Virus record (IMG/VR): IMGVR_UViG_2579778919_000011
From: a virus
Taxonomy: Duplodnaviria; Heunggongvirae; Uroviricota; Caudoviricetes
DNA: 14,300 nt
Direction: 5' to 3' (one strand)
Both the position numbers and the translations under genes were made by a program. Below the pieces are notes generated by a model that worked only from the letters and a program-made list of their open reading frames with translations, made no database searches and had not been told where the DNA came from. How positions within the stretch are numbered: position 1 is the stretch's first letter; every line of letters starts with the position of its first letter. This document shows, piece after piece, positions 2,191 through 14,300 of this stretch.

Positions 2191-2550
2191 ATGAGAATGA
2201 CCAGCCGCAAAAAAGAGGTACTCAGTTACTTTGAGCCGGATAGCCTCGACTGGGTTACTGGTGAGATTGGTGCGCCGCCGTTCGATGTGTCGGGCGTGGC
2301 CTACCTTCTTCATGGCATGGCGTCGTTCGATAAGCGCCACCAGCTCGAATCAACCCGGCGAACTCTTGAAAGCATGGTTGCCGGGGGGCTACTGGAACGT
2401 GTGACAGTGTATGAATCGCGTCAGGTAAAGCGTGGCGGTGAAACTAACGCAACGGTCGTGCGCTACGGTTTACCCGGTCAATGTGCCGTTGTGCGCGATA
2501 ATGGCGGCGCTGATAACTCGATATCTGGTGAATATGAGCGGGTTGGCTAA
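2191..2550 (+). CDS. Hypothetical protein (119 aa); only plus-strand gene in the island, at its left edge
   Basis: ATG at 2191 with AAGGA about 11 nt upstream; TAA at 2548-2550. Composition resembles neighbouring island genes. No family recognised. It competes with a minus-strand ORF at 2137..2340. Confidence 0.45.
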   Translation: MRMTSRKKEVLSYFEPDSLDWVTGEIGAPPFDVSGVAYLLHGMASFDKRHQLESTRRTLESMVAGGLLERVTVYESRQVKRGGETNATVVRYGLPGQCAVVRDNGGADNSISGEYERVG

Positions 2551-2863: not shown

Positions 2864-3475
2864 CTACGGAATCAGGCTAATGCCTCTGGCTGCTTTCCCC
2901 GTCTTACGCTCAATCACGCCCGTGATTCTGTCCACTACCGGGCTGAATGCCTGCCAGTAAACACTCTCATAGCGAACCAGCACCCCTACTTTTTTGTTGA
3001 ATGTATCCCAGCGCATTCCCTTCGGCTTCGGGAAGGAACAGGGATTGTTAGCTAAATTACGTGTCTGTTCGGTGTTTCCCCAGACGGCATAACGCTGACG
3101 GCGCATTTTCATTCGCATCCGGCCTAACCTGTCCTCGCTCTGGCTGGTGTAGTGAAGTTTCCAGCACGCCCGGCAGCCAATATCTTTTTTGCCAATATAC
3201 AGCTTTGCAGCCCGTTTCATACAGTGGGGGCAAACGTACCATTCCCGCACGCCATACCCGGCCTGTGTGGTTGTGGTGCGAATCGCCCGCGTCACGCCGT
3301 TGATTGTCATGGCGTAGCTGTCGGCTTGCCGGAAGGTATACAACGTTCCGCTTTCGGTCTGGGTATAAAGCTGCGTACCCGGTTCAGCATCCGCCAGCCT
3401 GCTACGCATGTGCGAAAGGAATGGCAACCCTATGCGGGGCAGGTCGGTGGTATAGCTGCGCGTTCTGTCTCTCAC
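2864..3475 (-). CDS. Hypothetical protein with C4 zinc ribbon (203 aa), GTG start
   Basis: GTG at 3473-3475 is preceded by AGGAGG at 7-nt spacing. The protein contains CPHC-N15-CRAC (CxxC...CxxC). No family confidently recognised. Confidence 0.65.
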   Translation of the reverse strand: MRDRTRSYTTDLPRIGLPFLSHMRSRLADAEPGTQLYTQTESGTLYTFRQADSYAMTINGVTRAIRTTTTQAGYGVREWYVCPHCMKRAAKLYIGKKDIGCRACWKLHYTSQSEDRLGRMRMKMRRQRYAVWGNTEQTRNLANNPCSFPKPKGMRWDTFNKKVGVLVRYESVYWQAFSPVVDRITGVIERKTGKAARGISLIP

Positions 3476-3728: not shown

Positions 3729-4106
3729 CTAACATGCGCCGTTTTTTTTAACCCTTCGCAGATCCCGCCTTGCTTGCATTGAAACGGATCTCGCTAAACT
3801 CAGCTCAAGCCGTGCGATTCTGTCGGCATGTAGCCCCATGAGTCCGTTAATCAATGTCATCTCGCGCCATTCTTCTGTTCCCGGCGTCGGATTAGTCGCC
3901 AGTAATAGCCCGTATCTCTCAGCCATCATGAGGTTTCTTGCACGATTTCGCACCAGCGGAGAAAGCGCATCTTCTCCCTCAAACGGGAAGAATACCCGCC
4001 TACTGCGTTCGCCATGTTTGACGGCATTAGTATTGCCCAACGGTGCGCCTGCGCCTTTCCGCTTGCCACCCCATCCCGATCTTGATTGTTGGCTATTTTT
4101 TTTCAT
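3729..4106 (-). CDS. Terminase small subunit-like protein (125 aa); candidate packaging-redirection factor
   Basis: ATG at 4104-4106. The N-terminus GGKRKGAGAPLGNTNAVKHG matches the G-x-G-A-P-x-G-N-x-N-A-x-K-H-G motif I associate with one class of phage small terminase subunits. The size is typical of TerS. Assignment is by motif only. Confidence 0.55.
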   Translation of the reverse strand: MKKNSQQSRSGWGGKRKGAGAPLGNTNAVKHGERSRRVFFPFEGEDALSPLVRNRARNLMMAERYGLLLATNPTPGTEEWREMTLINGLMGLHADRIARLELSLARSVSMQARRDLRRVKKNGAC

Positions 4107-4320: not shown

Positions 4321-4671
4321 TCACGGCACAGACGAGTACCAGTAAAAGCCTGTTAGCCCGGCATCGCAGCGCTCACGATTAAGCACGCGTGGCGGTTGCT
4401 CTCTGGTCATCAACTCCAGCGAAGCATTACCTCCCTGCGTCTCCAGGCGGTATTGCCTGTCGGTAGTGGTGATGGCATCAGGCAATAACTTTATGGCGGC
4501 CTGGCTAAAGTCTCGCGGCGCGCCGTAAAATTGCGCATCAATAATATGAACCACATCGCCGTTAATCGTTGTCCGATAACGATCTGGCTGTATTGTAAAG
4601 CCCCCACAATGGATAGCAGATAGTGCCGGTGCAGAGGAGATCAGGCAGGCTGCCAGAATGTATTGCTTCAT
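4321..4671 (-). CDS. Small exported protein (116 aa) with N-terminal signal peptide
   Basis: ATG at 4669-4671 overlaps the upstream stop (ATGA). The N-terminus MKQYILAACLISSAPALSA is n-region plus hydrophobic core plus AxA-like cleavage site. No family recognised. Confidence 0.6.
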   Translation of the reverse strand: MKQYILAACLISSAPALSAIHCGGFTIQPDRYRTTINGDVVHIIDAQFYGAPRDFSQAAIKLLPDAITTTDRQYRLETQGGNASLELMTREQPPRVLNRERCDAGLTGFYWYSSVP

Positions 4672-5309
4672 TCTTCACCCACCAATTCATCCAGTTCAGC
4701 CAGCGTCAGAGGCTTTGGTACAGGCTTGTCGATATCGCCCATAATGCGCTGGAAGTTTCTGGCGGGCATATGGTTACGGTTCTCCAGTATTTTCGCCAGC
4801 GCGATAACATCCCACCATTTCAGGGTAATCAGCGCCTGAGCGCGGGAAAGGGATATTCGCTGTATATCGGCGTCCTCCCCACCAGCTACCCGGTATACCT
4901 CGGATAAATCACGAACATTTTTCATATCTGCTTTCCCGGACGTTTCCATCAGTGCGTCAATATCATCCTCCGTATAGCGTGATTGCGCGACGATACCAGC
5001 CAGAGAGCTAACCATAGCCCGGCATACTTGGTCTATCAGACGTAATCTGGCGTCATCGTTCGAGAGGGTGTAAGACTTAACCTCAGCCACATTCCGTGGA
5101 TAGTTGGCGTGCCATACCGCGACGGCTCCACACTCATCAACATCGCCGCCAAGGTAGGTTTTTGCCACTCGGTTATTACCCGATAATGCAATTTCTACCC
5201 CCTGTATGCCGAAAAACCATGCGGCTATCGCATGACCTGCTTCGTGTATTGCGAGATGTCTGGGCCAGCGATAGCTGCCTAACTCGATAATGGTGGGTTG
5301 TGTACTCAT
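4668..5309 (-). CDS. HEAGH zinc metallopeptidase-like protein (FtsH/M41-like motif, no AAA+ module)
   Basis: The ATG at 5307-5309 (MSTQPT...) is preceded by AGAGGGAAGA and sits 10 nt after the SSB stop. The ORF-track start at 5366 would overlap SSB by 47 nt. The protein contains LAIHEAGHAIAAW, resembling the FtsH zinc-binding HEAGHA motif. Confidence 0.7.
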   Translation of the reverse strand: MSTQPTIIELGSYRWPRHLAIHEAGHAIAAWFFGIQGVEIALSGNNRVAKTYLGGDVDECGAVAVWHANYPRNVAEVKSYTLSNDDARLRLIDQVCRAMVSSLAGIVAQSRYTEDDIDALMETSGKADMKNVRDLSEVYRVAGGEDADIQRISLSRAQALITLKWWDVIALAKILENRNHMPARNFQRIMGDIDKPVPKPLTLAELDELVGEE

Positions 5310-5319
5310 ATCTTCCCTC

Positions 5320-5781
5320 TCAGAATGGATCTTCATCATCAAACGGCGGGCGCTGGTCAAAATCATCAGGGGTGTTATATAGCTCCCATCCCGGCGCGGG
5401 TTGCGTGGTATGGCCCCTGCTGGCTTCGCTTGCTTTGACTGACTCGGCCCGCTTCCCGCCGGGGCGTACCGTTCTGGCGCTGATCACGCTGTCGGCTACT
5501 ACCTGATACCCCTGCTGTGTACCGCCATCCTTGCCCGTCCACTGATTGACCTGCATCGCTCCGGCAACACTGACTAAATCGCCTTTAACGTGTCCTGCCA
5601 GTGCGTCGGCCTGTTTGCCGAATGCCACCACGCCCAGCCAGAAAGTAACCTCTCCGCCCTCTGCTGCATGGCAGGGCAGTGCCACCGCTAACCGTCCCAT
5701 TGCCATGCTTGTACCGCTTGCTGTGGTGCGGGTCTGGGGATCTGCCACCAGCCGCCCGTATGCTGATATCTGTGCTGTCAT
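5320..5781 (-). CDS. ssb: Single-stranded DNA-binding protein (153 aa)
   Basis: OB-fold-like pattern TFWLGVVAFGKQADALAGHVKGD...W...YQVV, and an acidic C-terminal tail ...PPFDDEDPF resembling the SSB DDDIPF tail. Its start overlaps the upstream stop (TAATG). Confidence 0.85.
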   Translation of the reverse strand: MTAQISAYGRLVADPQTRTTASGTSMAMGRLAVALPCHAAEGGEVTFWLGVVAFGKQADALAGHVKGDLVSVAGAMQVNQWTGKDGGTQQGYQVVADSVISARTVRPGGKRAESVKASEASRGHTTQPAPGWELYNTPDDFDQRPPFDDEDPF

Positions 5782-6283: not shown

Positions 6284-8728
6284 CTATTCTTCGCCCCCTT
6301 CGGCGGTGCTGCTGCCATATGCTCGCGGTATAAACTCCTCAGCCATCTCGTTATAGCCCACGTTGGTTTGCGCTCTGCCGTTAATGCTTCGCGTCAGGTA
6401 GCTGGCTCGGTACTCTTTTGCTGCTGATTTTATGGCGCGTGAAAACTTATTGACGGAAAGCGGTTTACCCAGCCCGTGATACTCCATAAACGCCAGGTAA
6501 AGATGATAAAGATACGCCCTCGGCTCTGGCTGGCCTGCCCATGTACCTCCGCCCATCATCATGCCTTTGGGTTCGTTCATGAAAAAAAGTGCCGCACACA
6601 TATCGATAACCGGATCTGTGCCGCGTTTAACGTCTAGCGCCTCCTGAGAATCGCGCTGCTCAAGTAACAGTGCCTTTGCTTTGTTCTGGTCGGAAAAGGT
6701 GGTTAGCAGGTGGCGGATAATCACCGGGATTTCTCGCCTGATTTTTGCGGTTAAATCCGGGTCTTTGTCTGCGTCTGATACCGGGTTATTAAACGGGAAT
6801 ATCACGCGGCGGCGGGCAATGCCCCCGTTTCGCTCCGTGAATGTCATCGGCTCGTTATTGGTTGCCATAACAACGGCATTTATCACGGTTGTGAACTGCT
6901 TTTCATATTTCCCATCAATCTCTACCGGATCGCCGCCCGTAATGGCTTTAATCCCCGCACCCTCTCCAACGTAGCGGGTCTGGTCAGGCATAATAATCAG
7001 GCTTTTCCCTACGAACTGCGCCCGTCCCCGTGCGGTGTCCAGCGTCATCATGCTACCGCTGGCGGTGTTGTGTTCACCTGCCAGCGTGGTTGCTATGCTG
7101 CTGAATACGGATTTCCCACTGCCGCCCTCGCCAGTTATCTCAATGAATAGCTGCCAGTCGTGACGCTTCGCCAGCACCATAAACAAGGCTGCTTTGATAC
7201 GCTCGGCCTTATGATGGTCGCCAGCCGTTGCATGATTCAGCCAACGGGTAAAATTGGGGGCGCTGGTGGAAATATTCTCCCCCGGCGCTGGCGGGGTGTA
7301 GGTGATCCCATTGTGGTTCATCAGCCAGTTACCCGGCGAATGGGCGGAAAACGTCTGCGTAGCGAGGTCATAAACGCCGTTATCAAAACCAATCAGATCC
7401 CCGCTCCGCTCACCAATTACCGGTATTTGCAGCTTCATGGTTGCGACAACCGATTTAATCCCTTTTTCGGTGTAGTGGGCTTCGTGCTCGTCGAAAATTG
7501 CCACCATAACCCTTTCTAATTCGCTGTCTGGTAGCTTCACCCATACGCCAGATTCGTAGCAGTAAACAGCGCCACTATCAGGGTTGACCGCCAACATATC
7601 CCAGCGAGATGAAAGCAACCGCGCTTTCTGGCTGGCTGCCATTTGTGCAATATCTCCGACTTCGGCTTTACGGCGGGATTTACCGCCCACAATGGCCTGT
7701 AGTTGTGGTTTCACGGCTTCCCCCTGAATCTGGTACATCGAATCGTTAAACGCAGCCGTAGCGACTTCCAGCCCGTTTTGCTGGCGGTAGTCGTCCCAGT
7801 CGGCTTTGTAGTCTGTCGGCGGCAGCGCCACCCAGCCAGCCACGGATAAGGCGGCTTTCTCTGCGGCCTCCCTGCCTGTATTGGCTTCTCCGTTTTGGTG
7901 GTGGTCGTTGTCTGCGGCGATAATAATTTGCGCCTTCGGGTGTTTCCGGCGCATTACTCCGGCAACGGGTAGCAGGTTGCCCGCGTCAATTGCTGCCACT
8001 GCCAGCGCGTCCGGGCGCATCAGGTGAACTGACAGAGCGGTAGCCAGCCCCTCGGCAATCACGACGCTTTGAGGCCGTTCCAGCGCGTTTACGGCGTAAT
8101 ATGCCCCGCGCTTTGCTGAACCTGTCAGAAGTCGCTTTTCTCCCTGCGGGGTGATGGTCTGCGCGGCTGTGACTGCGCCGGATTCATCCACCAGCTCCAG
8201 CAATAACGAACCATCGGGCATTAGCGGGTAATTGAACCCGGTCAGCCCTTTTGATTGCAGGTAATCAGATTCGCCCTGTGTGACGTTCTGGCGCATTCCG
8301 GCATACAGACGGGTAAACGTTGCCCTTCGCTGCTCTGCGTCCTCTGCTGCCTGTTGCTGGCGCTCCTGCTCACGCTGCTGGCGGTCAGCCTCCAGTTGCT
8401 CCCTTCTCTGGCTCGCTGCCGTCTGGTCGGTTTGTGCTGCCCGGTAATCAATACCCAGCACATCAGCGGCAAGGTGCGCCGCCTCCGTGGTGTCGCAGTT
8501 GTTAACCCGCTTGATTAAATCCAGCCCGTCGCCCGCGCCGCACTGATTGCAGATAAAGCTGCCGCGCCCGTTGTCGTCGAACCGGAAGCGATCCGTACCG
8601 CCACATGCAGGGCAGGGGGCATGGCGGCGTGATGAATCAGGCACGTCGATAGACAGGCCAGCCAGCACATAAGGCCAGTTACCAGCGGCGGCGGTGGTCA
8701 CTTCGCGGATAAAGTCGATATTACGCAT
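6284..8728 (-). CDS. Primase-helicase (P4 alpha-like / Pri-Rep), 814 aa
   Basis: N-terminal zinc ribbon CPACGG...CNQCG; Toprim-like motifs VVIAEGLATALS and IIIAADNDHH; Walker A GEGGSGKS in the C-terminal NTPase domain. GAGGGAG lies 7 nt upstream of the ATG at 8726-8728. Confidence 0.9.
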   Translation of the reverse strand: MRNIDFIREVTTAAAGNWPYVLAGLSIDVPDSSRRHAPCPACGGTDRFRFDDNGRGSFICNQCGAGDGLDLIKRVNNCDTTEAAHLAADVLGIDYRAAQTDQTAASQRREQLEADRQQREQERQQQAAEDAEQRRATFTRLYAGMRQNVTQGESDYLQSKGLTGFNYPLMPDGSLLLELVDESGAVTAAQTITPQGEKRLLTGSAKRGAYYAVNALERPQSVVIAEGLATALSVHLMRPDALAVAAIDAGNLLPVAGVMRRKHPKAQIIIAADNDHHQNGEANTGREAAEKAALSVAGWVALPPTDYKADWDDYRQQNGLEVATAAFNDSMYQIQGEAVKPQLQAIVGGKSRRKAEVGDIAQMAASQKARLLSSRWDMLAVNPDSGAVYCYESGVWVKLPDSELERVMVAIFDEHEAHYTEKGIKSVVATMKLQIPVIGERSGDLIGFDNGVYDLATQTFSAHSPGNWLMNHNGITYTPPAPGENISTSAPNFTRWLNHATAGDHHKAERIKAALFMVLAKRHDWQLFIEITGEGGSGKSVFSSIATTLAGEHNTASGSMMTLDTARGRAQFVGKSLIIMPDQTRYVGEGAGIKAITGGDPVEIDGKYEKQFTTVINAVVMATNNEPMTFTERNGGIARRRVIFPFNNPVSDADKDPDLTAKIRREIPVIIRHLLTTFSDQNKAKALLLEQRDSQEALDVKRGTDPVIDMCAALFFMNEPKGMMMGGGTWAGQPEPRAYLYHLYLAFMEYHGLGKPLSVNKFSRAIKSAAKEYRASYLTRSINGRAQTNVGYNEMAEEFIPRAYGSSTAEGGEE

Positions 8729-9331: not shown

Positions 9332-9549
9332 GACTTGCCCTCCCGATATTCACGCATCACATAGTCAGCTAGCTTGCTTTCGGCTTCTTCCATTGCCTCC
9401 GGGACGCCATGCAGCAAAGTGAGGATTGAACCGATAAGACGCGGAAGGTCGGGGCTAGTGTCTTTGGTGGTGCTCTCCAGCCACATGGATAAAACAGCCT
9501 GTGCCTGTTCAATCTGACAGGTGGCATCAATCAGTTGTAACTGGCTCAT
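9328..9549 (-). CDS. Hypothetical small protein (73 aa)
   Basis: ATG at 9547-9549 overlaps the stop of the Icd-like ORF (ATGA). Translationally coupled position within the operon. Confidence 0.55.
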   Translation of the reverse strand: MSQLQLIDATCQIEQAQAVLSMWLESTTKDTSPDLPRLIGSILTLLHGVPEAMEEAESKLADYVMREYREGKS

Positions 9550-9734
9550 GCTGCCACCTCCAGACGGATACGGCCTGCAAAGAAACAGACGTGATCCCGC
9601 GCCAGCGTGCGGCGAGCTTCGCGCTCAGTTTCAGCAGCAATGTGATGGATTTTGGCGGTAATTGTCGGCATATCGCGGCGAACTGCTGCGATAATCCAGA
9701 TAAATTGCGGTTTTTGGGTAGGGGTAGTAGCCAT
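9546..9734 (-). CDS. Icd-like small protein (62 aa; host cell division inhibitor-like)
   Basis: The ATG at 9732-9734 is preceded by AGGAGG at 7-nt spacing. The sequence MATTPTQKPQFIWIIAAVRR...EREARRTLARDHVCFFAGRIRLE fits my recollection of Icd-like proteins in P4-type islands. The 249-aa ORF in the track is an upstream read-through of this gene. Confidence 0.6.
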   Translation of the reverse strand: MATTPTQKPQFIWIIAAVRRDMPTITAKIHHIAAETEREARRTLARDHVCFFAGRIRLEVAA

Positions 9735-9761
9735 TATGGCAGCCTCCTTTGTGTTTAAGGA

Positions 9762-9800
9762 GTCACCGCCTGATGTGCAAATATCATGATTGGCGGTGAC
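9762..9800 (-). promoter_or_regulatory. Perfect 9-bp inverted repeat GTCACCGCC-N21-GGCGGTGAC upstream of the Icd-like gene
   Basis: Arms at 9762-9770 and 9792-9800. The spacer contains the palindrome ATCATGAT. It lies 28 nt upstream of the Icd-like start and could be an operator or an RNA stem-loop in the 5' leader. Confidence 0.4.
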
Positions 9801-9923
9801 GTTAGCAGGGTTTGCACTACCGGACACAAAGGAAACCGGCCTACGCGAACGTAGCCCCACTAACGCCACCATTGATACAGTACGGGTAAGTCCGCTGATT
9901 TGATGTGCGTAGTGAATGGACAC

Positions 9924-9946
9924 AAAAAAAGACGCTTTCGGCGTCT
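9924..9946 (-). terminator. Rho-independent terminator (minus strand)
   Basis: Minus strand reads A-GACGC-CGAAA-GCGTC-TTTTTTT: a GC-rich 5-6 bp stem, 5-nt loop and a T7 tract. It is in the non-coding region between the 60-aa ORF and the Icd-like gene. Confidence 0.5.
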
Positions 9947-10005
9947 GTGTCGCCCTTAGTGTGTTCGGGGTGCAAATCCCGGTTGCTGATTTTGCAGCAA
10001 CGCTT
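9924..10005 (-). ncRNA. Candidate small structured RNA ending at the terminator (possible C4/CI-like immunity RNA)
   Basis: Between a weak TATAGT-like -10 (around 10010-10016 on the minus strand) and the terminator, the minus strand can form three hairpins: GTTGCTG-N6-CAGCAAC (9982-10001), CGGG-N8-CCCG (about 9966-9981) and the terminator stem. The predicted length of about 80 nt and the position upstream of an icd-like gene match the P1 c4 / P4 CI arrangement. Inference only. Confidence 0.25.
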
Positions 10006-10233
10006 GGACTATAACAGCTTTTCTCTGCTAGGTGGTCATACCAGATAAAACCGTAACCCTTTAAGAGTTTTTCCTGTGCACGGCTCACCATCTTTTTGTT
10101 GAGGGTAAGCGCCTCGCGTACTGGTAACGGAACTCCGGGCGCTGCGGTATCAATATCAGGTTTTGTAAGGTTGCAGATGTCAACTTTTGACAACATGCCA
10201 GCCAGATTAAAGGCTTCTTTCTGGGCGGCAGGT

Positions 10234-10416
10234 TCATTCAGTATCACGGCGCACCTCCACGAACTCATTAACGAATCTCTCCAAAGGCTGAACACATGGC
10301 GACTGATAGCCCTCGCGGTAAAAGGTCACTCGGTTATGCTCGACGCGCTGTACGGTCACTACAGCCCCGTGCGAATCCTTGTAACGGCTTCCCGGCATCG
10401 GATTGTGGTTACGCAT
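10234..10416 (-). CDS. Hypothetical small protein (60 aa)
   Basis: The ATG at 10414-10416 has GGAGG at 6-nt spacing, embedded in the 3' end of the antirepressor gene (8-nt overlap). Sequence MRNHNPMPGSRYKDSHGAVVTVQRVEHNRVTFYREGY.... Confidence 0.6.
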   Translation of the reverse strand: MRNHNPMPGSRYKDSHGAVVTVQRVEHNRVTFYREGYQSPCVQPLERFVNEFVEVRRDTE

Positions 10417-11254: not shown

Positions 11255-11689
11255 TTAGGCGGCGGTGAGATTGTCCGGGTATAGGTTGAGAATGTCGGCA
11301 ATTTCAGGCTGAGAAAGTCCCTGATAGCCGCCAGCGTCGGCGTTATGGTTCACAAGCCGAATAACTTTTAGAACGTCACCGCGCCCGGTAAAGCGATAGC
11401 GTAAATGTGACCCTATCCCGTCGGGGTTCTTTTCGTCTATACGCTCAAGCTGAATATCAAGCCTGCGCTCTAACTCGCTGGCGTAGTTCCTTCCAGATGA
11501 AAGGCGGCAATATCGCAGAATGTCGTTTTCTGTCCATCCCTCTACGCCAGTACGCAGCATATAGACGCGGGCGCGGTGTTTCTTTGGGGTTCGCTTAGGT
11601 ACTTGTACCGGGCTGGTGGTCGGCGTAATATCAGACGTGCGAATATCTGAGTTAGCCGCCTGCTGTACGGGGCGGTTTTTCTTTTTCAT
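11255..11689 (-). CDS. Hypothetical protein (144 aa), basic N-terminus
   Basis: ATG at 11687-11689 overlaps the alpA stop (TAATG). Lys/Arg/Pro-rich N-terminal region; no family recognised. Confidence 0.65.
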   Translation of the reverse strand: MKKKNRPVQQAANSDIRTSDITPTTSPVQVPKRTPKKHRARVYMLRTGVEGWTENDILRYCRLSSGRNYASELERRLDIQLERIDEKNPDGIGSHLRYRFTGRGDVLKVIRLVNHNADAGGYQGLSQPEIADILNLYPDNLTAA

Positions 11690-11892
11690 TACGCCACCTT
11701 TCCCCGGCGCTCCGCCAGCCAGTTGTGAATATCAGCCGCATCAAAGGCGGTAATCTTCTCGCCCAGCTTTACCGGACGTGGTAGTGAACCGTTTCTTACT
11801 TTACGGTCGATGGTGGATACACTAACGCCCAGCAATTCAGCCAGGCGAAAGCGTCTGATATAGCCTTTTGTAGGGATAGTGTCGATGTTCAT
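11689..11892 (-). CDS. alpA: AlpA-family phage transcriptional regulator (67 aa)
   Basis: RFRLAELLGVSVSTIDRKVRNGSLPRPVKLGEKITAFDAADIHNWL matches the AlpA/excisionase-like helix-turn-helix pattern. It sits in the typical position near the integrase. Confidence 0.85.
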   Translation of the reverse strand: MNIDTIPTKGYIRRFRLAELLGVSVSTIDRKVRNGSLPRPVKLGEKITAFDAADIHNWLAERRGKVA

Positions 11893-11896
11893 GATT

Positions 11897-11935
11897 CCCG
11901 TAACCTCTTAGCGATAGTTGTTGCTTCGTTACGGG
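11897..11935 (-). promoter_or_regulatory. Inverted repeat CCCGTAAC-N23-GTTACGGG immediately upstream of the alpA start
   Basis: 8-bp arms at 11897-11904 and 11928-11935. On the minus strand the structure encloses the alpA ribosome-binding region (GAGG), so it is a candidate operator or RBS-sequestering hairpin. Confidence 0.35.
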
Positions 11936-11986
11936 TATTTAATGGCAAATTCAGTAGTCAATGTTCCAAATTTAAAATGGTCAGTT

Positions 11987-12940
11987 TCAAATTTTGAAGT
12001 ATTTCTCAATGGTTGCAGAGGAAGGCATACCCATGCCGGCGAGCTTGCCTTCTCTCTGCTTATCCTCCAGAAATTTTATTAGAATTTCATAGCGTTTATT
12101 GGGATTTGCGGTTATTACATCTTCACCCAGCTCAGGTACGCATCGGATTAGCATTTCAATAAACTCACCAACCTTATTGCTGTTCACTGTTGGCGCTATT
12201 TGCTTTTGCTCGCTGGGTTCTGGCGGGATGGTAACGCCTCCGTTAATCATGCTTTTCATTGGCTCGCCTGTGTCTATTGCGTCTTTTAGTTTTAAGATGG
12301 TATCTCTGGCAATAAATAGATCGGAGATTGTCAAAGTCTCATTAAGCGCAGGTTTTCGGCTCTCACTTAACTGAAACCCTATGCTTTCGGCTAGTTGTCT
12401 GTTTAGCGTCGGTAGCCAGCTCTGATTAAAATATCTATCGCTAATTATATGACACGAAAGGCCAGTCTTCTCGCGGAAAGTATCCCATCCGAACGGCCTG
12501 AAAATTGTCGTATCTATCACCCTTGCCCTCTCAGAATAAAGGAGGCTTTCTATTTCACCATGTCCCAGACACCATAGCCCATGCGCCAATCCCCTAAATA
12601 AAATAAACCCACCATCTGTTTTGTATACGTCATGCTCGGTGAGAAAGGAATTAAAATGAGATACATAGTTGCTATCACGAAAAAGAAATGATGAGTTTAC
12701 TTTGTGTTCGTTATAAAACTCAATTGGATCTTGAATGTCTTGGCCGCCTACAAAAACCAGCGCAGAACAGAAATACCTCATCATTACACATAAGGGGATC
12801 GCACCAATAACACCATAGTGAAGTAAATCATCTGTATCACATTGTAAAATACTAGCTGCCCTGTCGAGCTTAAAGTATTCCATAGGTGGGATTTTAATAC
12901 TGCTGTGGGCTTCTTTTTTGGTCATCGCGTCACCTTTCAC
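11987..12940 (-). CDS. AT-rich cargo protein of unknown function (317 aa; alternative ATG start at 12925)
   Basis: Long ORF between int and alpA. Hand-counted GC of three 60-nt blocks is about 28-43 percent, against about 70 percent in one block of the primase gene. AAGG lies upstream of the GTG at 12938-12940, and the ATG at 12923-12925 also has an SD-like AAAGGTGA. No catalytic motif recognised. Confidence 0.7.
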   Translation of the reverse strand: MKGDAMTKKEAHSSIKIPPMEYFKLDRAASILQCDTDDLLHYGVIGAIPLCVMMRYFCSALVFVGGQDIQDPIEFYNEHKVNSSFLFRDSNYVSHFNSFLTEHDVYKTDGGFILFRGLAHGLWCLGHGEIESLLYSERARVIDTTIFRPFGWDTFREKTGLSCHIISDRYFNQSWLPTLNRQLAESIGFQLSESRKPALNETLTISDLFIARDTILKLKDAIDTGEPMKSMINGGVTIPPEPSEQKQIAPTVNSNKVGEFIEMLIRCVPELGEDVITANPNKRYEILIKFLEDKQREGKLAGMGMPSSATIEKYFKI

Positions 12941-13040
12941 GCTGTGCCTTAAAGAGTGATTGAGCCAGGCGGTAAGGCTTCCCGCTTTTCGCCCCGTCGG
13001 GCTAGGCTCAATCTGTCCTCTGATTCTTTACATATCTTGG

Positions 13041-14300
13041 TTACTTCGCCTTTCTCAGCGGTGTAACGTTGTATTCTTCGCCGCGTTCCAGTGCCACCAG
13101 CAAGCCCGCCCACTGTGTTAACGCAGCCCGGCGTTCATCAAAGTATTGGTGGCGGTTATAGATACCCTCCACGCCTTTAATTTTGTGGTTAAGGCATCTT
13201 TCTGCGACTACCGGATCAACGCCCAGCGCGGCTAAATGGGTGCGGGCCGTGCGCCGGAAGTCGTGAATGGTGAAGTTCGGCACGTCCGGCATTTCAGCGC
13301 GAACCTTCGCCAGCGCAACGGGCAGGGTGCTTTCCTGAATATGGGGGATCATGCGGTTTTGCATCTTTCTGGCTGGCAGTACCCATGCGCTGTTGCATGA
13401 GAACGTTTTAAGCTCTCTCAGCCATTCGACGGCTGGCGGTGCTAATGGGATGTCTATAGCGTCGCCGTTTTTGCTGCGTTCCTCTGGCAAGCGCCATACG
13501 GCTTTATCAAAATCGAACTCCTCCCAGCGGGCGGCGCATAACTCCATTTTGCGGACGCATAACGCTAACAGTAATTTGAACGTGATTTCGTTCTGGCGAC
13601 TGAATCCCTTAGCCGTGCGCATGGCTTTGAATAGCTGGATTAACTCATCGCGGGTTAACCAGCGGTCACGGGCAACTTCTTTCCCTCCGGCGTCTGCCAC
13701 CTCAAAGGCTGAACATGGGTTAATCTCCAGCGCGTGCCGTTTGATTCCGTAGTCGAATATGCGGCGCGTCCATCTCAGCACGTCCGTTGCTATGGTCGGC
13801 GCTCCACGGTCAACAATACCTTTCAGCATGTCATCGATATGGCGCGGTTTCACGTCCTCTACCTTCATGCTGCCAATGCAGGGGTTTATATCTTTGTCGA
13901 TACGGCGGCGGAGTATATCGGGGTGCTTCCAGCGCGGGAGGATCTGACGCTCAAAGTATTCAGCGGCAAGCTCTGAAACGCGCATGGCGTTCTTCTCTGC
14001 TTCCATCTTCGCCAGTGCTTCGGCTTTCCGTTCCTGCTTCTCTCCCGCGACGTCATAACCCAGCGCAACACGCGCCGATAGCTCTTTGGCTGTCTCTCTG
14101 GCCTTTGATAGTGATAGCTCGGCATATGAGCCAATCAGCATGGCGCGGGGTTTCCCTGCGAATTTATAGCGGAATCGCCAGACGGGGGTCTGGTAGTTTT
14201 CGCGGTATGAAAGATAAAGCCCGTTACCGTCAGAGCGTCCCTCGAATCGCTCCCCGGCCTTTATCCATGCGCGGATCTGCATGTCTGTGAGTTTTGGCAT
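13041..14300 (-). CDS. int: Tyrosine recombinase / integrase, P4-family (419 aa)
   Basis: The N-terminus MPKLTDMQIRAWIKAGERF...DGNGLYL resembles the arm-binding domain of P4-type integrases. C-terminal catalytic residues are present: HDFRRTARTH (HxxR) and GIYNRHQY (catalytic Tyr). The ATG is the last three bases of the window, so the promoter is outside it. Confidence 0.9.
   Translation of the reverse strand: MPKLTDMQIRAWIKAGERFEGRSDGNGLYLSYRENYQTPVWRFRYKFAGKPRAMLIGSYAELSLSKARETAKELSARVALGYDVAGEKQERKAEALAKMEAEKNAMRVSELAAEYFERQILPRWKHPDILRRRIDKDINPCIGSMKVEDVKPRHIDDMLKGIVDRGAPTIATDVLRWTRRIFDYGIKRHALEINPCSAFEVADAGGKEVARDRWLTRDELIQLFKAMRTAKGFSRQNEITFKLLLALCVRKMELCAARWEEFDFDKAVWRLPEERSKNGDAIDIPLAPPAVEWLRELKTFSCNSAWVLPARKMQNRMIPHIQESTLPVALAKVRAEMPDVPNFTIHDFRRTARTHLAALGVDPVVAERCLNHKIKGVEGIYNRHQYFDERRAALTQWAGLLVALERGEEYNVTPLRKAK

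Follow-up and report, generated by a model that had tools for sequence, protein, structure and literature searches.

A hypervariable gene between the integrase gene and alpA of a Gram-negative phage satellite belongs to a large uncharacterised family and is a possible life-cycle regulator

The gene that separates the integrase gene from alpA in the island analysed here (‘gene X’; ‘the window’ is the full stretch of 14,300 nt) encodes a conserved, selected member of a large uncharacterised protein family, and this family is a fixed component of the integrase–AlpA module of PICI-type satellites and related islands. The int-alpA RNA motif forms the leader from which gene X is translated. As modelled, its product has a modular build, in which a conserved MerR/Xis-like winged helix is followed by an α/β middle domain that evolves fast, by a hinge and by a C-terminal helical cassette that can be swapped. 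Tentatively, we favour the view that gene X is a hypervariable regulator of the life cycle of the int-alpA module, possibly a sensor of helper phages. The original prediction, which saw in the gene a recently acquired orphan piece of cargo, is partly supported: the segment is variable and compositionally foreign, but the orphan status, the recent arrival and the assignment as cargo were wrong.

Results

Layout of the island

The features to which the text refers are as follows (window coordinates).

13041..14300, minus strand: tyrosine integrase, 419 aa, directly upstream of gene X (Pfam Arm-DNA-bind_3, Phage_int_M and Phage_integrase)
12946..13012, minus strand: int-alpA RNA motif (RF02996), three stems (cmscan 64.9 bits against a gathering threshold of 35.8, E = 7e-12)
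12926..12945, minus strand: short hairpin GCGU-GAAAGGUG-ACGC with the putative Shine–Dalgarno (SD) sequence of gene X in its loop (from sequence and MFE fold)
11987..12925, minus strand: gene X in its probable extent, 312 aa from ATG 12925 (317 aa from GTG 12940)
11963..11994, minus strand: two direct repeats AAATTTGRAAC with a period of 21 bp, the first overlapping the stop codon of gene X
11897..11935, minus strand: hairpin CCCGTAAC-N23-GTTACGGG just 5' of alpA, the SD abutting its 3' arm (absent from Rfam)
11689..11892, minus strand: alpA, 67 aa, AlpA/HTH_17 regulator/excisionase, directly downstream of gene X (Pfam PF05930, E = 1.8e-7)
6284-8728, minus strand: P4-α-like Toprim/D5-type primase (Pfam and PHROGs)

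The genes of the island are co-oriented on the minus strand in the order integrase, gene X, alpA, a 144-aa protein, an AntA-type protein, an Icd/Ash region and the primase. Beyond the primase lie an SSB gene and several uncharacterised genes, and then the chromosomal dinD-like gene and yicG. Pfam and PHROGs identified no structural genes in the window. With int, alpA and primase co-oriented and neither capsid nor terminase encoded, the island (approximately 12 kb, against about 10-17 kb for the class) qualifies by its gene content as a Gram-negative PICI-type satellite.

The gene for the 144-aa protein (11255-11689, minus strand) has a stop/start overlap with alpA. The protein is 70–92% conserved in relatives and 48% in Zobellella, has no match in Pfam or NCBIfam and is placed by RefSeq in the ‘PM1773 family’. 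This label was rejected for gene X, since the annotation belongs to the 144-aa neighbour. On the 3' side of SSB, five or six ORFs between positions 1919 and 5366 have no Pfam match; of these, 4668-5366 (minus strand) contains a HEAGH zinc-protease-like motif, 4321-4671 (minus strand) has a signal-peptide-like N-terminus and 2864-3475 (minus strand) has a CxxC...CxxC arrangement, the others being 3729-4106 (minus strand) and 2191-2550 (plus strand). The SSB-side end is where relatives have their recognisable cargo, BstA_C in locus L007 and P22 ejection-protein genes in L003. The distal end of the island differs in its number of dinD copies: the window has one such gene (910-1746), and the E. 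coli relatives L001 (1620-3619, one copy a pseudogene) and L002 (1365-3366) have two, which suggests that a dinD-like (Bro-N) gene is carried or duplicated by the island at this junction.

Gene X is a fixed part of the integrase–AlpA module

In the E. coli relatives the island is located between yicC and dinD, with a homologue of gene X between int and alpA. The order int, gene X, alpA is also found in Enterobacter at another attachment site, in one JGI metagenome contig, in several Logan assemblies and in Vibrio (L024), where the gene overlaps int by 8 nt. Nine species-representative genomes (from Tolumonas, Zobellella, Aeromonas, Oceanimonas, Rheinheimera and a Rhodocyclales MAG) extend the family to islands with integrases only 23–30% identical to that of the window; AlpA directly follows gene X in seven of the nine. 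In every context examined, from Enterobacterales to Rhodocyclales, the family member comes directly after a tyrosine integrase where upstream sequence is available, and alpA is the next gene in most loci, whatever the replication module. Four such modules lie behind int–X–alpA (P4-type primase, P2 GPA-type, DnaB-type and AAA_25), hence gene X belongs to the int-alpA module and not to one satellite backbone. A Rheinheimera element with int–X–alpA (L019:13437-14609) has, in addition, genes for a phage major capsid protein and a DnaB-type helicase; it could be a small prophage with this module or else a satellite that forms capsids.

Among the approximately 30 loci inspected, the slot between int and alpA was occupied in all, in most by this one family, and the family was met only beside an integrase. 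This constancy, together with the four replication modules, contradicts the earlier classification of gene X as accessory cargo, as does the location of the recognisable cargo of relatives 3' of the primase.

The gene X protein belongs to a large family

The ORF 11987..12940 on the minus strand is free of interruptions. ATG 12925 stands 7 nt past AAAGGTGA, and because all 312-aa homologues begin at this codon it is the likely start, so that 11987..12925 is probably the true extent of the gene. Comparison with the E. coli allele in L001 gives a dN/dS of 0.22, and gene X is therefore a real coding gene under purifying selection. By segment, the ratio is 0.09 over the N-terminal 55 codons and reaches its highest value, 0.40, in the middle domain.

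A word-indexed search identified 57 clusters at 90% identity (Klebsiella, Escherichia, Citrobacter, Enterobacter, Raoultella and Dickeya), all of them named ‘hypothetical’. An exhaustive profile search of 1.84 billion representatives identified 474 clusters at 50% identity with E <= 1e-3, 149 with E <= 1e-10; the protein is thus no orphan. Most of the relatives from the profile search are 270–340 aa long and match residues 1–240, and the named members of the family include Salmonella, Serratia, Morganella, Providencia, Tolumonas and Vibrio parahaemolyticus. A second word-indexed profile search added few further members.

None of 141 family members matches Pfam at E <= 0.01, and the gene X protein matches neither NCBIfam nor, at E <= 0.1, any defence family of PADLOC-DB 2.0 (0 families). 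These results agree with the original observation that the protein has no catalytic or nucleotide-binding motif and no hydrophobic segment. Two profiles run against PDB sequences gave spurious repeat-protein matches only, and the PHROGs scan a weak N-terminal match to PHROG 7144 (E = 0.006) and otherwise nothing. Isolated cassettes and N-terminal fragments had no usable match in Pfam at E <= 10 [best match of the N-terminal fragments: MerR, E = 0.26, below threshold], and the gene X protein scored above threshold with none of PF13411, PF00376, PF12728 and PF05930. A tblastn search of 50,697 phage records with the gene X protein, the Vibrio member and three C-terminal cassettes as queries found no homologue; there is therefore no evidence that the cassettes were borrowed from phages. 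No paper that mentions the family was found in the literature.

Predicted structure of the gene X protein

An AlphaFold model built on 141 sequences (pLDDT 87.7, pTM 0.72) has residues 15-235 as one confident unit. The protein is divided as follows.

Residues ~15-59: MerR/Xis-like winged helix, β-α-α-β-β (predicted)
Residues ~60-200: β-rich α/β domain without a clear match (predicted)
Residues 203-219: closing β-α element (predicted)
Residues ~227-231: conserved INGGV hinge
Residues 236-250: disordered linker (predicted)
Residues 251-309: C-terminal helical cassette, a small bundle, type ‘a’ (predicted)

In the model, the N-terminal β-α-α-β-β unit superposes on the DNA-binding domains of the MerR family, and the pattern xRAAxLLxCxxxDLxHW aligns in register with AlpA. 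The protein differs from MerR, HTH_17 and Xis proteins in that it lies below every Pfam threshold, has an acidic recognition helix, lacks the MerR dimerisation coiled coil and has an α/β domain of 140 residues inserted before the closing β-α element. Acidity of the winged helix is a property of the family (mean net charge -2.5), in which E16, Y17, C18, R22, C29, D33, H36 and W37 are near-invariant. A basic DNA-contacting recognition helix was not found; the putative recognition helix holds the invariant D33 and H36, and DNA binding by the winged helix is therefore doubtful. The type-a cassette is not basic. Foldseek searches of PDB and BFVD with the model found nothing, and the confident model contains no effector-type domain (nuclease, NTPase, protease, membrane or other).

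The int-alpA RNA motif is the leader of gene X

In the window, int and gene X are separated by 115 nt that hold the int-alpA RNA. The RNA is a full-length, above-threshold member of RF02996; the match spans model positions 1-71 of 71 and ends 20 nt before ATG 12925, and the MFE fold (z = -4.3) agrees with the model. RF02996 was detected in 15 loci including those of Tolumonas, Oceanimonas and the Rhodocyclales MAG, and in all but one of these (14 loci) its distance to the start codon of the slot gene downstream is 17-22 nt; in L008 the outer stem is compensatory. Although Rfam classes the motif as a gene or sRNA, it behaves here, by this constant distance, as a 5' leader. Some E. coli islands have the RNA in front of an unrelated slot protein of 293 aa; it is thus tied to the slot and not to a particular protein family. 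The motif reportedly originates from the candidate-RNA screen of Weinberg et al. in 2017, and to our knowledge it has no assigned function. The literature search returned a single paper with the motif in its main text, as an Rfam match in some STEC genomes. Between the motif and the start codon, the hairpin GCGU-GAAAGGUG-ACGC, which is retained in the E. coli and Enterobacter relatives, would present the Shine–Dalgarno sequence of gene X.

The window contains further RNA elements on the minus strand at 9789-10014, namely a C4 antisense RNA (RF01695, 80.8 bits), isrK (RF01394, 73 bits) and the a1/b1 C4 target (RF03163). All lie within the 249-aa ‘Ash/Icd’ ORF (9546-10295). The island thus has a P1/P7 immI-like RNA immunity cassette, and the upstream part of the ORF is probably non-coding. 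The pair of C4 and isrK is also present in L001-L003, L008, L014 and L017.

The slot is variable and its occupants have low GC

Against a mean of 51.9% GC over the window, gene X has 41.9% (GC3 41.2%), with GC lowered at all three codon positions, and the other ORFs longer than 70 aa have 47.4-60.0% (GC3 45-65%). Nothing else in the window is comparably AT-rich apart from one 69-aa ORF of doubtful status (42.9%) and parts of the intergenic DNA (37-42%). The initial hand count, by which gene X is the most AT-rich gene of the island, is thus confirmed. Its reading as separate, recent acquisition is not: slot occupants have 35-43% GC against 50-55% for the integrase in every host, and every allele is 10-17 GC points below its flanks. 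Since low GC is common to all alleles, it is a trait of slot occupants and not a sign of recent arrival. Across related islands the slot largely holds the same gene, a pattern that the original prediction had named as counting against it, but with a low and not a normal GC content.

Comparison of homologous islands bore out the expectation that the int-alpA interval is variable. Slot proteins are 29-42% identical among islands with integrases that are 91-92% identical and AlpA proteins that are 71-96% identical, and in some E. coli islands the same position is taken by the unrelated 293-aa protein. This second family, unrelated by HMM, occurs in E. coli yicC islands (L026:703-1584, L029:714-1595 and L035:2628-3509) behind the same int-alpA RNA, has 40-43% GC and is followed by paired repeats of its own (TTTCGCnnCGAAA type).

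At the DNA level both flanks, the RNA leader and the alpA hairpin CCCGTAAC...GTTACGGG, are kept across alleles. In all enterobacterial relatives this hairpin has conserved arms and a loop of variable length (13 to 23 nt); its fold is thermodynamically unexceptional (z = -1.0). The hairpin is the conserved 3' boundary of the replaceable segment and may control the translation of alpA. Gene X as a whole is replaced by recombination between the conserved leader and the alpA hairpin.

Exchange also occurs within the gene, as closely related alleles differ by whole C-terminal cassettes of ~65 aa, of which there are at least three unrelated types. The dS between the window and L001 depends strongly on the segment, the middle domain having 0.15 and the C-terminal cassette 1.41; these unequal values indicate a mosaic. 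The N-terminal and middle parts of the window and L002 proteins are 82% identical and the AlpA helix-turn-helix is identical, whereas the cassette and the downstream repeats differ. Conversely, the window has its cassette and the AAATTTGRAAC repeats in common with L004, L007 and L008, the rest of the protein being 29-35% identical.

Repeats downstream of gene X follow the C-terminal cassette

The two copies of AAATTTGRAAC, AAATTTGAAAC and AAATTTGGAAC, are 21 bp apart and are the only two in the window (P = 0.012 against shuffles); L004 has three copies. Other alleles have repeats of another sequence there, with periods of 17-21 bp; in tests against shuffled sequence these reach significance in 9 of 23 loci. 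Two c-type alleles, those of L003 and L034, have an intrinsic terminator between gene X and alpA in place of the repeats. The type of repeat tracks the C-terminal cassette and not AlpA or the N-terminal part of the gene X protein; the b-type cassettes of E. coli, Tolumonas, Zobellella and Oceanimonas, for example, are all followed by CGGAA(n)TT-type repeats. This pattern suggests that the C-terminal cassette reads the repeats downstream of it, and the AAATTTGRAAC repeats may be an operator for the alpA promoter region. Cassette and repeats are adjacent, and their co-variation could therefore be hitch-hiking, at least in close relatives. A scan for sigma-70 promoters over 11600-13300 found none, and thus none in the 94-bp spacer between gene X and alpA.

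Discussion

Comparison with known systems

The closest positional parallel is in the PICMI satellites of Vibrionaceae, in which integrase-overlapping or integrase-contiguous genes (iolg/icg) lie between int and alpA (Barcia-Cruz et al. 2024, PMC10803314). Thirteen families of these genes, of unknown biochemistry, were reported; the iolg of PICMI115 is required for helper-induced excision, and it was proposed that int and iolg are constitutive and alpA is phage-induced, how the helper switches on alpA being stated as an open question (PMC10803314). The PICMI defence gene up2 is located outside the int-alpA position (PMC10803314). EcCIMP1 has a small, different gene at this position (PMC11773190). 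Like gene X, iolg follows directly on int and precedes alpA, with all three genes on one strand. The start of iolg overlaps int by 1-13 nt, whereas in the window the two genes are separated by the 115-nt gap (the Vibrio member, with its 8-nt overlap, lies within the iolg range); PICMI are minimalist islands of 6 kb, in contrast to the 12-kb PICI-type island of the window with its P4-like primase, and IOLG has 195 aa against the 312 of gene X. Two IOLG sequences were recovered through AlpA homologues, one beside an AlpA 99% identical to that of PICMI115 (L033:62-649) and one in a complete PICMI (L030:4325-4915). The gene X family HMM scored them at -0.5 and -0.1 bits, respectively, and hhalign gave a probability of 0.06%. 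Homology of gene X to the 195-aa PICMI115-type IOLG was rejected on these values, and the iolg phenotype therefore transfers by position only.

The Stl master repressors of staphylococcal pathogenicity islands are encoded beside the integrase, are transcribed divergently and combine a DNA-binding N-terminus containing an XRE-type HTH with highly divergent sensor domains. Gene X resembles stl in that it is adjacent to the integrase gene and encodes a DNA-binding-type N-terminus with divergent domains, and its alleles could define the inducing helper. There is, however, no detectable relationship in sequence or fold. Stl is divergent from its operon and has an XRE-type HTH, whereas gene X is co-directional with alpA and MerR/Xis-like and has no HTH_3/XRE match; Stl represses, whereas the analogy to PICMI suggests a positive role for gene X.

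Possible roles of gene X

In the mechanism that we tentatively prefer, the resting island would produce the gene X protein along with the integrase. The protein would be held just upstream of alpA by its C-terminal cassette, which would read the repeats specific to its allele, beginning at the stop codon of gene X. Detection of a helper-phage product by the variable middle domain would switch on alpA, and AlpA would then drive excision and the replication operon. Allelic diversity would set which helper phages induce which island, and gene X would be the missing helper-sensing step of Gram-negative satellites, comparable to Stl but built differently and probably acting positively.

A regulatory role is preferred because the family is large, unannotated, fixed in its int–X–alpA synteny and without a homologue in the phage records, and because an RF02996 leader precedes a gene that is hypervariable between conserved flanks and mosaic in dS. 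It also draws on the natural domain swaps, in which repeats co-vary with the cassette across loci and genera, and on the PICMI115 iolg, which holds the same position and is needed for helper-induced excision. The terminator between gene X and alpA in L003 and L034 fits two transcription units. Against such a role stand the acidic winged helix, the non-basic type-a cassette, the negative promoter scan and the significance of the repeats in 9 of the 23 loci; moreover, with a C4/isrK immunity cassette in the island, control may not need a protein sensor. We consider it somewhat unlikely that the entire int-alpA interval is an exchangeable specificity cassette, in which the RF02996 leader, a hypervariable sensor of new fold and its own operator repeats would together serve helper recognition and the firing of alpA.

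Other roles have to be weighed against regulation. If the protein were a cofactor of excision and integration, an accessory or directionality factor of the kind proposed for IOLG in PICMI and a structural partner of integrase and AlpA in the recombination complex with no part in transcription control, it should co-vary with its partners, be they Int, AlpA or att DNA. Instead, alleles that are 29-42% identical, or an unrelated protein, are found beside integrases 91-92% identical, at the same attachment site and with a near-identical AlpA, and a protein of 312 aa and three modules is far above the size of known directionality factors; a cofactor of this kind is unlikely. We would give a similarly low probability to the original proposal of a single-gene anti-phage defence, abortive-infection or helper-interference protein, here diversifying in an arms race. 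Hypervariability, mosaicism and low GC are common to gene X and many defence genes, satellites are known to carry defence genes (PMC10803314), an unrelated protein can hold the same slot and no other function is known for gene X. Yet PADLOC and the confident model offer no positive support, neither a matching family nor an effector-like domain, which is absence of evidence and not refutation. The family is never away from the integrase and the slot never empty in the ~30 loci, unlike cargo that varies by presence and absence; recognisable defence and cargo genes of relatives lie beyond the primase, and in PICMI the positional analogue is a life-cycle gene while the defence gene up2 is elsewhere.

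The allele-specific repeats, co-inherited with the C-terminal cassette beside them, would also suit immunity or exclusion between satellites, in which an allele-specific repressor silences the resident island and blocks newcomers of the same type in the manner of a phage immunity repressor. A divergent AT-rich segment between conserved flanks does resemble phage immunity regions, and the resting island probably expresses gene X along with the integrase (by extension from PMC10803314). Loss of the PICMI slot gene, however, abolishes excision and does not make it constitutive (that protein is non-homologous), the island already has an immunity system of the C4 RNA type, and gene X is co-directional with the genes that it would have to repress. 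We regard such a repressor as very improbable.

Should the regulatory reading of gene X prove wrong, the family, large and so far unannotated, still has a defined genomic role, the Rfam int-alpA motif can still be taken as a 5' leader, and gene X can be used in annotation as a core marker of satellites and not as cargo. If the int-alpA interval is indeed a specificity cassette as outlined above, the RNA motif and ~500 unannotated protein clusters would gain a function together. Gene X is a concrete and widespread candidate for the step at which Gram-negative satellites sense a helper and switch on AlpA, and natural allele swaps of it are present in sequenced strains of E. coli and Klebsiella.
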